Assembly (NCBI GenBank): GCA_038734945.1
Contig: JAVYOA010000009.1
Location: 496,001 to 536,354, forward strand
Length of the DNA: 40,354 nucleotides
Direction of reading: 5' to 3'
DNA from: Fervidicoccaceae archaeon
Lineage (GTDB): Archaea; Thermoproteota; Thermoprotei_A; Sulfolobales; Fervidicoccaceae
Shown: positions 3,298 through 13,835 of the stretch, piece by piece
Layout of the letters: every line of letters begins with the position of its first letter
How positions within the stretch are numbered: the first letter of the stretch is position 1
Position numbers and translations under genes: made by a program
Notes under the pieces: generated by a model
Told to the model about the DNA's origin: nothing
Database searches by the model: none
The model's input: the letters and a program-made list of their open reading frames with translations, nothing else

Positions 3298-3372
3298 GCC
3301 GCGGTAGTATAGCCTGGCCTAGTATGCGGGCCTGTCGAGCCCGTGACCCGGGTTCAAATCCCGGCCGCGGCG
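3298..3372 (+). tRNA. tRNA-Asp(GTC), no intron, CCA not encoded
   Basis: Acceptor stem GCCGCGG/CCGCGGC plus G73; anticodon arm CGGGC-CTGTCGA-GCCCG; T arm CCGGG-TTCAAAT-CCCGG; followed by a T-rich tract. Confidence 0.97.
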
Positions 3373-6953: not shown

Positions 6954-7080
6954 CTTACCTAATCATAAGATATCTAAAGAGGAGATTTTCTTTAGGATTA
7001 ATATTAATGCTGTTACCTGTTTGAAAATTAAGGATAAGCTGGAAGATGGCTGGGATAGGAATTGTATAATAAATGTAAGG

Positions 7081-7181
7081 TCCCCCCGCCGGGCATCGAA
7101 CCCGGGACCTGCCGGTATCGGCGAGATCATGTGGGGACCGTCTCACTACAGCCGGCCGCTCTACCGCTGAGCTACGGGGGG
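7081..7181 (-). tRNA. tRNA-Tyr(GTA) with 29-nt intron at 37/38 (intron 7117-7145)
   Basis: Minus strand reads CCCCCCG TA GCTCAGCGGTAGAGC G GCCGG CTGTAG [intron] A CCGGC AGGTC CCGGG TTCGATG CCCGG CGGGGGG A. C1-G72 and A73 are the archaeal Tyr identity elements; mature length is 72 nt. Confidence 0.95.
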
Positions 7182-11338: not shown

Positions 11339-12439
11339 TTGAAAGTCGGAATTATTGGCGGAGGGATCTCGGGGATCCTCTCTGCTATAAAACTGCTTAA
11401 AGCTGGCTGCGATGTATTTCTCTACGAAGAGCATCAGAGCATAGGATATCCCAAGCACTGTACTGGACTTATATCAGAGAGAACTCAGAAGGAGCTCGAA
11501 TATGCCGGAAAGAAGTGCACAGATTCATTTTATTCTTCGATCAATTTCGAGATTCCGTTTGAGGGAAGATTGAAGCTTTTTTCTAAATACAAGATAGTTC
11601 ACCTTGATAGAGCTTGTCTGGAGAGAGAGCTCTTTCATTTATTTGAAGATTTAGGGGGAAAGGCATTTCTTGGAAAAAAAGCCACCTTAGATGGGAGGAA
11701 TCACATCATTGCTGGAGGCCATTCTGCATATTTCGACCACGTAATAGTTGCTGAGGGAATTAGAAGAGAGATATCAAAAAAATTTTTAAAATACTTGAAA
11801 AATGAACAAAAAGTGTTTGGATTGAATGTTGTTTATAGAGCAAAGCATGAACTTGAGGGCATTACTGTCGGCTTCCATCCATCTATAGCTAAGGGATTTT
11901 TCTACTGGATTTTTCCCACAGCTGAGAATACGGTAATCGTTGGAGCAGGAACATCAAATCCAAGAAACCTGAATAATAGCATATCACTATTGACAAAAGT
12001 TTACAACCTAAATACTCCAATTGAGATTGAAAGGTATGGAGGATGGATAAGCACTGGCCCTCCCCCAAAAAGGCAGGAAATCAGAGATATAACTTTTATT
12101 GGTGATGCCTTTGGAATGCAAAAGCCTATAACTGGTGGGGGAATTTTTCCAATTACATATGCTCTGAAAGGTGTAGAGGAAAAAAGCTGTGTATCTTCCA
12201 TTGAAGTTCTGAGGGAGAATTCAATAAAAATAACGAATTTATTGAAAAAACAGCTACCAATCGCGAGGATAGCTCACTCAGAGAGCTTTTACACTTTAGC
12301 TAGAAAAATAATAGGAACCTTCAATGGTCTGGAGATAGTTGATGAGCAGGGCCTGTTCGATTATGATAGGCATGAAACGATTTTTCCATACATATTGCTA
12401 CACTTCTTCGATTTTCTGAGAGAAATTAAAATTAAATAG
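11339..12439 (+). CDS. Geranylgeranyl reductase family FAD-dependent oxidoreductase
   Basis: GGGISG, PKHCTGL, FFYWIFP and IGDA-x4-KPITGGGI motifs. Confidence 0.85.
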   Translation: MKVGIIGGGISGILSAIKLLKAGCDVFLYEEHQSIGYPKHCTGLISERTQKELEYAGKKCTDSFYSSINFEIPFEGRLKLFSKYKIVHLDRACLERELFHLFEDLGGKAFLGKKATLDGRNHIIAGGHSAYFDHVIVAEGIRREISKKFLKYLKNEQKVFGLNVVYRAKHELEGITVGFHPSIAKGFFYWIFPTAENTVIVGAGTSNPRNLNNSISLLTKVYNLNTPIEIERYGGWISTGPPPKRQEIRDITFIGDAFGMQKPITGGGIFPITYALKGVEEKSCVSSIEVLRENSIKITNLLKKQLPIARIAHSESFYTLARKIIGTFNGLEIVDEQGLFDYDRHETIFPYILLHFFDFLREIKIK

Positions 12440-12444
12440 AAAGG

Positions 12445-12523
12445 AAATTTCCCCCGCCTTACCGTTCCAGCTTCATCTTCATCTGCCTCTGGCATTTCTG
12501 CGGACGTGAGACTGGCGGGGCTC
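12445..12523 (-). ncRNA. Single-hairpin H/ACA-type pseudouridylation guide sRNA; predicted target is the 23S rRNA uridine equivalent to E. coli U2593
   Basis: Basal stem CCCCGCC/GGCGGGG; pocket strands GUCUCAC (12512-12506) and CGGU (12464-12461); upper stem ending in a CAGA/AUGAAG K-turn-like motif; ANA box (AAA, 12450-12448) 14 nt from the top of the pocket; U-rich tail. Confidence 0.8.
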
Positions 12524-12656
12524 AATACTTCTTCTTTCAATCTGAAAATAAAAATTTACTCTCTGAAAAGTCTTATTTTGTTGTTTCATTACTATACATT
12601 TTATATCGCGCCTTTTCTTGAAAATACTACTAAGAAAAATGTAGGGGGGCTGATTA

Positions 12657-13835
12657 ATGGAAAAGAAGGGCAATGATTTGCTCACACACAAGTTAATTCT
12701 CACTCCTGGCCCAACTGAGATGCCGAGAGAGCTGCTTCTCTCCCTTGCAAAGGACGTGGAAAACCCTGATCTCGATCAATCCTTCTACGATTTTTACCAT
12801 GGAATTTATCAGAAGCTTGCTAGATTACTGAACTCGTGGAATCATAGAGCATTGATAATGCTTGGAGAAGCAATGCTCGGCCTTGAAGCCAGCATAATCA
12901 ATTTGCTAGAAGAGGGGGAAGAGGGATTAGTCCTCTCAAATGGCTTTTTCGGGGATGGATTCTCCGATTTACTTAATTTGACGGGAAGAAAATCAAAGGT
13001 ATGTAAGTGGGATGAAAGAGAGGGTATTCCAGCCGATGAAACTGAAAAATGCATAGAGCAGAGTCCCAATTCCAAAGCAGTTTATATGGTTCACTGCGAG
13101 ACTCCAACAGGGGTACTGAATCCAGTTGAAAAAATTGCTCCAATTGCTTCTGAATCTGGTAAATATGTAGTTGTAGACGCAGTATCCAGCATGTTCACAA
13201 CTCCAATTTATGCTGATGAATGGAAGGTGGATGTTCTCATAGGTGGAAGTCAGAAAGCCTTGAATTTGCCACCAGGACTAACAATACTAATGATTAGCGA
13301 CAAGGCATGGAAATACTCAGTCAGTAAGAACACAAAATCTTTCTACCTTTCTTTCTCCCAGTGGAGGGGATTTCTGGAAAATAGAGAGATGACTCCATAT
13401 ACTCACTCAATGAACCACCTTAGAGCGCTTGACGATGCGCTAATTAGAATGATAAACGAAGGGGAAGATAATGTATACAGGAGGCACGAGAAGATTAGAG
13501 AGGCATCATGGAAGGCTGCTTCCCTACTTGGACTTGAGCTATTTCCAAGAGATATAAAGAGCGCATGTCCAGGAGTTACAGCAGTCCTCCTCCCCAGCGA
13601 TATTTCATCAATTGAAGCCAGCCAATGGATAATGAACAGATATGGAATAATGCTGGGGACAGGTCTGGGAAAGCTCAGAGAGAGAATACTTAGGATAGGA
13701 CATATGGGCTTTACAGCATCACTAGACTACCTTCTATTAGCTTATCTTGCTGTTGGGAGCTATCTAAAGGAGAAGGGAAAAGTTAGACCAGTTGATATAG
13801 TAGAATCTCTGGAGGCAATAATGAGGATCAAATAA
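12657..13835 (+). CDS. Class V PLP-dependent aminotransferase (serine-pyruvate/alanine-glyoxylate type)
   Basis: LTPGPT, VHCETPTG, DAVSS, GSQKALNLPPG and RIGHMG motifs. Confidence 0.93.
   Translation: MEKKGNDLLTHKLILTPGPTEMPRELLLSLAKDVENPDLDQSFYDFYHGIYQKLARLLNSWNHRALIMLGEAMLGLEASIINLLEEGEEGLVLSNGFFGDGFSDLLNLTGRKSKVCKWDEREGIPADETEKCIEQSPNSKAVYMVHCETPTGVLNPVEKIAPIASESGKYVVVDAVSSMFTTPIYADEWKVDVLIGGSQKALNLPPGLTILMISDKAWKYSVSKNTKSFYLSFSQWRGFLENREMTPYTHSMNHLRALDDALIRMINEGEDNVYRRHEKIREASWKAASLLGLELFPRDIKSACPGVTAVLLPSDISSIEASQWIMNRYGIMLGTGLGKLRERILRIGHMGFTASLDYLLLAYLAVGSYLKEKGKVRPVDIVESLEAIMRIK

Follow-up and report, generated by a model that had tools for sequence, protein, structure and literature searches.

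The window analyzed here, a 40,354-nucleotide stretch of a contig from a Fervidicoccaceae archaeon, contains a 217-bp gap between two plus-strand genes, one FAD-oxidoreductase-like and the other class-V aminotransferase-like (Table 1). Within this gap, the G+C content rises to as much as 0.51, compared with 0.25 to 0.40 around it. An initial annotation had interpreted the minus strand of the GC-rich segment as an H/ACA-type guide RNA directed at the peptidyl transferase center of 23S rRNA. We delimited a guide RNA core of 73 nt on the minus strand (12520-12448; covariance model match G000:C9:508448-508520), which the earlier coordinates of 12445-12523 exceed by 3 nt at each end. The 7-bp basal stem, the GUCUCAC and CGGU pocket strands, the AAA box, and a U-rich run downstream of the box can all be read on the minus strand as originally proposed, and the TATA-like tract described upstream was also confirmed. 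At homologous loci, A/T runs of at least 6 nt occurred between -42 and -22 in 22 of 29 cases and between -90 and -70 in 7 of 29. These upstream runs fit an archaeal TATA box without proving one, and their promoter function is putative. Three metatranscriptome runs from one study gave 0 reads over 12300-12700, a result with no bearing on expression.

Table 1. Features of the guide RNA locus and of the tRNA-Tyr gene in the window
Feature	Position	Strand	Remarks
A/T-rich TATA-like tract	12544-12556	-	24-36 nt upstream of first stem base
Lower stem P1, 5' strand	12514-12520	-	CCCCGCC; pairs with 12452-12458
Pocket 5' strand	12505-12513	-	A, then GUCUCAC (12512-12506), then G
Upper stem P2, 5' strand	12500-12504	-	UCCGC; pairs with 12466-12470
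K-turn, non-bulged strand	12495-12499	-	AGAAA; GA at 12498-12497; putative L7Ae-binding element
Apical hairpin	12484-12494	-	UGCC-AGA-GGCA; 4/4 pairs altered on both sides
K-turn, bulged strand	12471-12483	-	tandem GAUGAAGAUGAAG; conserved block
Upper stem P2, 3' strand	12466-12470	-	CUGGA; partner of 12500-12504
Pocket 3' strand	12459-12465	-	A, then CGGU (12464-12461), then AA
Lower stem P1, 3' strand	12452-12458	-	GGCGGGG; partner of 12514-12520
ANA box	12448-12450	-	AAA; single G between P1 3' strand and box
FAD-oxidoreductase-like gene	ends 12439	+	flanks gap with element
Class-V aminotransferase-like gene	starts 12657	+	flanks gap with element
tRNA-Tyr(GUA) gene	7079-7181	-	29-nt intron; Rfam tRNA match, aragorn call, target scan
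tRNA-Tyr target, U35	7148	-	
tRNA-Tyr target, 3' flank GUGAGAC	7146-7140	-	
tRNA-Tyr target, 5' flank GCUG	7152-7149	-	

The folding energy of the element was ordinary (z = -0.40, with 66 of 200 shuffled sequences folding equally well). Because energy alone is not special here, the proposed structure rests on covariation; the minimum-energy fold retained the lower stem and the apical hairpin. Across an alignment of 16 sequences, the stems as proposed were paired in 95% of cells, compared with 81% in shuffles and 39 to 57% when the partner strand was slid, and changes on both sides were found at 4 of 5 P2 pairs and 4 of 4 apical pairs. We built a covariance model from this alignment and aligned 74 homologs to it. 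In this larger alignment, whose fitting to the model biases it toward the proposed pairing, the paired fraction was 98% of cells versus 81% in shuffles, and all nine upper and apical pairs covaried (P2, 5/5; apical hairpin, 4/4). The seven G-C-rich pairs of the lower stem were formed in 98 to 99% of cells and were nearly invariant across the 74 homologs, making the covariation test largely uninformative for this stem.

The placement of the box relative to the pocket was constant. All 74 homologs have the ANA box 14 nt away from the first base of the 3' guide strand, the distance that the initial annotation had given relative to the top of the pocket; counted from the last pair of the upper stem, the distance is 15 nt. 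The box reads ACA in 67 of these, AAA in 6 (all from family f1, to which the window belongs), and AUA in 1. The K-turn-like element that had been described does carry the expected GA motifs, but it starts after an upper stem of 5 to 6 bp rather than about 9 nt above the pocket. This stem is followed by nGA in 65 of 74 homologs, and the 3' strand presents a conserved GAUGA opposite it. Family f2 carries only the proximal AUGAA copy, which with a 5' UGA reads as a canonical K-turn adjoining P2, whereas the other families have the tandem GAUGAAGAUGAAG. Opposite GAGA, this tandem could form two alternative K-turns (window 12471-12483; columns 68 to 80 of alignment A3); in the window's genome, the second GA of the partner strand of the distal repeat is AA.

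The element joins a large internal loop, the pocket, closed by a lower stem, a 5- to 6-bp upper stem capped by a K-turn whose sequence would suit L7Ae binding, an ANA box 14 to 15 nt from the top of the pocket, and a bipartite guide complementary to stable RNA at two sites, each with a U-N dinucleotide left unpaired. Three proteins of such particles are encoded in the genome, with Pfam matches above the cut-off for Cbf5 (76 bits), Nop10 (87 bits), and L7Ae (109 bits). A Gar1 match of 21.7 bits fell under the cut-off of a Pfam model that the Sulfolobus acidocaldarius control also failed. The Cbf5 (TruB_N) match (G000:C2:257895-258257, minus strand; locus L179) contains one in-frame TAG, which may mark a cbf5 pre-mRNA intron of the type reported for Desulfurococcales and Sulfolobales (PMC2738675).

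An Rfam search, one of the checks suggested in the initial annotation, gave no family for the element at either gathering or permissive thresholds, and the only passing matches in the window were two tRNAs. Candidate matches to snoZ199 and MIR1435 had E values above 4 and were dismissed as chance. One of the two tRNA genes is that of tRNA-Tyr; the other (3298-3372, plus strand; 59.7 bits) is unrelated to the guide RNA.

We then determined how widely the element is distributed. BLAST with a 131-nt query against 41 related genomes gave matches limited to the 73-nt core, which was present in 7 of 7 further members of the same family and in four genomes of other families, with partial matches in more. 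Six further BLAST matches (L015, L017, L018, L020, L029, and L030) were rejected as short matches either to the GAUGAAGAUGAAG block or to other fragments lacking the stems. The covariance model found one strong match in the host genome (84.5 bits); a second host match (C2:374449-374511; E value of 1.39) was discarded for want of H/ACA features. In the covariance search over relatives that the initial annotation had called for, the model matched 103 of 151 sampled members of the order, as a single copy per genome. By family, these matches were found in f1 (7/7), f2 (18/19), f3 (6/19), f4 (0/1), f5 (16/18), f6 (1/1), f7 (8/14), f8 (7/8), f9 (18/18), f10 (0/6), f11 (17/18), f12 (3/3), and f13 (1/18). 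A class-level sample gave matches in 86 of 151 genomes, including those from other orders in f15 (2/2), f17 (1/1), and f16 (2/7), with none in f14 (0/7) or f18 (0/9). Family f13, a family of larger genomes, was nearly devoid of matches in both samples (1/18 in the order and 1/34 in the class sample).

At five loci of relatives (L041, L051, L053, L014, and L016), a box-C-like UGAUGA lies within 35 nt past the ACA box, adjoining the box in L041 and L051. This arrangement suggests composite H/ACA and C/D transcripts like that of Sso1, as judged from sequence. In the window, no box-C-like UGAUGA occurs within 35 nt past the box.

Taken together, the anatomy, stem covariation, and conserved single copy bear out the assignment to the L7Ae/Cbf5-type H/ACA class and indicate, on comparative sequence grounds, that the element is a genuine single-hairpin archaeal box H/ACA guide sRNA. 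Other readings, namely a GC-rich hairpin arisen by chance, a terminator or attenuator belonging to a neighboring gene, or a segment of a short minus-strand ORF (12361-12540 or 12479-12703), would each be in keeping with a folding energy no better than that of shuffles and with the lack of an Rfam match. However, a sharp-edged single copy in 103 of 151 genomes, with compensatory stems, guide strands that do not vary, and a box at a constant distance, fits a structured RNA only and already contradicts these readings, and the neighboring genes lie on the opposite strand. We regard all of these non-guide explanations as highly improbable.

To identify sites complementary to the guide, we scanned every U in the 16S rRNA, the 23S rRNA, and the 33 tRNAs called by aragorn, with coverage limited to these RNAs. 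The scan gave exactly two sites, U2739 of 23S rRNA and U35 of pre-tRNA-Tyr(GUA). The host 23S rRNA (C2:356475-359542) contains ACCGUCGUGAGAC once, so that the ACCG/GUGAGAC target given in the initial annotation is present in this genome. There, U2739 is flanked by 4 and 7 Watson-Crick pairs formed by CGGU with ACCG and by GUCUCAC with GUGAGAC, for a total of 11. On alignment to Escherichia coli, U2739 corresponds to the T at position 2592 of the 2903-nt annotated 23S rRNA, which we take to be U2593 in the usual 2904-nt numbering; the proposed equivalence to that position holds.

The second site had been missed, even though its gene lies in the same window, and the original interpretation is partly supported. 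In pre-tRNA-Tyr, GUCUCAC makes 7 Watson-Crick pairs with G37 and the first six intron bases, while CGGU makes 4 pairs, two of them G-U, with the GCUG at positions 31 to 34, giving 9 Watson-Crick and 2 G-U pairs. Among 2,000 shuffles of the guide strands, one equaled a site of 23S quality and none yielded two sites as good, indicating that the match is beyond chance. The guide gene of the window is about 5 kb from the tRNA-Tyr gene, with both on the minus strand. The two genes are 1.5 to 5.3 kb apart in 6 of 8 f1 genomes (the window's and G001, G002, G004, G005, and G006) and 8 to 53 kb apart in some other families.

Retrieval of tRNA-Tyr genes at 70 loci yielded 61 pairs of a guide and a tRNA. 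Seven of the 70 loci were left out for lack of a tRNA-Tyr(GUA) call (including at least G012, G040, G014, G065, and G062), a tRNA but not a guide was retrieved for two genomes (G070 and G114), and 13 of the 74 guides lacked a tRNA counterpart. With a threshold of at least 6 contiguous base pairs for the 5' guide strand, the genome's own pre-tRNA-Tyr was paired in 49 of 61 genomes (56 of 61 when a 1-nt shift, as in family f2, was allowed), and 23S rRNA was paired in 38 of 61. Both targets were paired in 26 genomes, the tRNA only in 23, 23S rRNA only in 12, and neither in 0.

Conservation of the pocket among relatives, raised in the initial annotation as a check, differed between the two strands. 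CGGU was kept in 67 of 74 homologs, and the 5' strand varied along with the tRNA intron. Matched guide and intron variants included CUCUCAC with GUGAGAG, CCUCAC with GUGAGG, CCCUCAC with GUGAGGG, UCCCAC with GUGGGA, UCCCCAC with GUGGGGA, UCACAC with GUGUGA, and CCACAC with GUGUGG. All departures from GUCUCAC were mirrored by the intron, with at least seven distinct variants spread over families f1, f3, f5, f7, f11, and f12. When tRNAs were permuted among genomes, 0 of 5,000 permutations reached the observed mean pairing, a figure that is descriptive only because related genomes are not independent. Thus, across the order, the 5' guide strand follows the tRNA-Tyr intron and not the invariant 23S rRNA. 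These compensatory changes in guide and intron are strong comparative evidence that pre-tRNA-Tyr is a real substrate.

Consistent with such a role, tRNA-Tyr guides have been tied to aPus7 proteins with altered motifs II and IIIa (Muller 2009, PMC2651775, in the available part of the text). The host aPus7/TruD-like protein is short at 321 amino acids (G000:C4:38484-39449, plus strand; locus L177, 1432-2397). Relative to Methanosarcina mazei TruD (1z2z), it has D-S-N in place of D-K-R, thus lacking the two basic residues that follow the catalytic Asp, and has M in place of the basic motif IIIa residue R of TruD ahead of DF.V.E. By this comparison, the host protein appears to be of the defective type tied to tRNA-Tyr guides (PMC2651775, as far as its available text goes), with a presumed loss of activity.

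These observations bear directly on whether 23S U2739 might be the sole target and the tRNA-Tyr match functionless. The host pairing itself, with 11 Watson-Crick pairs for 23S rRNA versus 9 Watson-Crick and 2 G-U pairs for the tRNA, leans that way, as does Pab91 of Pyrococcus abyssi, which is described in the available text of PMC2377435 as guiding a single site. Without selection on the tRNA, however, the repeated compensation between guide and intron in several families would be hard to explain, and both the degenerate aPus7-like enzyme of the host and the proximity of the guide and tRNA-Tyr genes in family f1 argue against a guide for 23S rRNA alone. We consider that explanation improbable.

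The converse possibility is that the guide serves pre-tRNA-Tyr U35 only, with the 23S match being an ancestral relic or a by-product of a helix-93-like intron. The 5' guide strand makes only 3 to 5 bp with 23S rRNA in 23 of 61 genomes, versus 6 to 8 bp with the tRNA, so that the guide follows the intron wherever the two targets disagree; in those lineages, any 23S function would then be either lost or dispensable. The Sulfolobus counterparts Sso1 and sR115 are validated guides with a tRNA target only in the available text of PMC2651775 and PMC11077068. Furthermore, U2733 of Sulfolobus islandicus, which is the equivalent 23S position if an offset of 140 holds, is reported in the available portion of PMC11077068 to be 2'-O-methylated and not pseudouridine.

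Other features of the family suggest a continuing constraint from 23S rRNA. Five genomes (G020, G034, G050, G119, and G056) have no intron match and yet retain an exact complement to 23S rRNA. CGGU is Watson-Crick to the ACCG of 23S rRNA and only wobble to the GCUG of the tRNA, and in 16 genomes of families f1 and f9, where the tRNA reads GUGGGAC, the guide retains the U that is Watson-Crick to 23S rRNA; in both cases, other bases would suit the tRNA better. Together, these three features speak for 23S rRNA as a real substrate too, and Pab91 provides a precedent at the same site. Among the 93 members of the order in which the region was found, 73 carry an unchanged core 23S target. The sequence was altered to GCGAGAC in 16 f13 genomes and to AGCG in four genomes of genus g25, and f13 and g25 are the groups in which the guide was not found or was nearly absent. 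Family f10 has a canonical 23S target and a guide in 0 of 6 genomes. Considering both lines of evidence, we find a guide restricted to pre-tRNA-Tyr unlikely, though it deserves some weight, and 23S rRNA is probably one of two targets here and not the sole one.

We therefore favor, with modest confidence that is a little better than even, a dual-target guide for U35 of pre-tRNA-Tyr and U2739 of 23S rRNA, as read from the complementarities and their variation. In this model, an sRNA of about 73 nt with a single hairpin would be transcribed from the minus strand, L7Ae would bind its K-turn, and Cbf5-Nop10-Gar1 would bind the lower stem and AAA box, presenting one pocket to two substrates. On unspliced pre-tRNA-Tyr(GUA), CGGU would pair with positions 31 to 34 and GUCUCAC with G37 and six intron bases, leaving U35 and A36 unpaired and allowing conversion of U35 to pseudouridine. 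On helix 93 of nascent 23S rRNA, CGGU would pair with ACCG and GUCUCAC with GUGAGAC, leaving U2739 and the following C unpaired for the presumed second modification. Since the tRNA-Tyr intron opens with a copy of the 23S sequence, a single pocket could fit both substrates. Counting against the dual-target model are the two G-U pairs of the short 3' strand with the tRNA, the AAA rather than ACA box, the AA in place of the second GA in the distal K-turn-like repeat, the Gar1 match under its cut-off, the weak 5'-strand pairing to 23S rRNA in the 23 genomes described above, and, if the offset of 140 holds, the reported 2'-O-methylation in S. islandicus (PMC11077068, available portion).

It is conceivable, and we put it forward tentatively at just short of even confidence, that the start of the tRNA-Tyr intron mimics helix 93 and that the resulting double constraint has been resolved in three ways, by keeping both targets, the tRNA only, or 23S rRNA only. 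If true, the family would constitute a natural experiment in guide-target co-evolution, and the tRNA-Tyr intron would persist as a landing pad for the guide. The family also yields predictions of which species carry pseudouridine 35, the helix-93 pseudouridine, or both, and our 74-sequence alignment could seed an Rfam model, which the family currently lacks.

Whether this guide or its site had been described was left undecided in the initial annotation. This type of guide has been published already, as have its 23S site and its tRNA-Tyr target, and the element itself is ordinary. We take the E. coli RluE, RluC, and RluB sites to be positions 2457, 2580, and 2605, which gives a constant offset of 92 from P. 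abyssi numbering and places P. abyssi U2685 at E. coli 2593. The P. abyssi positions behind this offset are 2549, 2672, and 2697, identified with those three sites in the available text of PMC2377435. Pab91 guides pseudouridine formation at U2685, as reported from in vivo analysis and in vitro reconstitution in the available text of PMC2377435 and PMC6138745. The window guide resembles Pab91 and Pfu91 of Pyrococcus in being complementary to the helix 93 sequence, in the peptidyl transferase region, that flanks the E. coli U2593 equivalent, and in the C that follows the target U. It differs from these euryarchaeal guides in its tRNA complementarity, as they are reported with a single target and no tRNA target in the available portions of the same two papers. 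Pab91 is likewise not in Rfam.

Sso1 and sR115 of Sulfolobales are H/ACA guides of the classic kind that direct pseudouridine formation at position 35 of pre-tRNA-Tyr, as validated by in vitro work and by deletion, the latter for sR115 of S. islandicus (PMC2651775 and PMC11077068, available text). The window guide shares with them anticodon-loop and intron pairing around U35, the link to a degenerate aPus7, and compensatory changes between guide and pre-tRNA. In contrast, the available text of these sources describes Sso1 and sR115 as making long tRNA-specific pairings, with no predicted rRNA target, and as often being co-transcribed with a C/D sRNA.

The closest likeness is to Ape7 of Aeropyrum pernix, predicted in 2009 to guide modification of both pre-tRNA-Tyr U35 and the Pab91-equivalent 23S site (PMC2651775, available text). 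Ape7 is a single-hairpin H/ACA motif from a Desulfurococcales-type crenarchaeon and has the same dual complementarity with an intron-containing pre-tRNA-Tyr(GUA), a K-turn separated from the pocket by 5 to 6 bp, and a spacing of 14 nt between box and target, as described in the available text of the same paper; the window guide differs in that its box is AAA. In our literature search, figures and supplements aside, only PMC2651775 named Ape7, and we found no order-wide survey of the family. Homology of the window guide to Ape7 is inferred from their shared dual complementarity and taxonomy, and the window guide is most likely an Ape7-type guide with two substrates. Relative to these known systems, what is new is the covariation of guide and tRNA-Tyr intron over a whole order, the signs of continuing 23S constraint on the pocket, and the breadth of the family, which occurs as a single copy in about two-thirds of the sampled genomes of the order, compared with one of four Desulfurococcales genomes in the available text of the 2009 report (PMC2651775).
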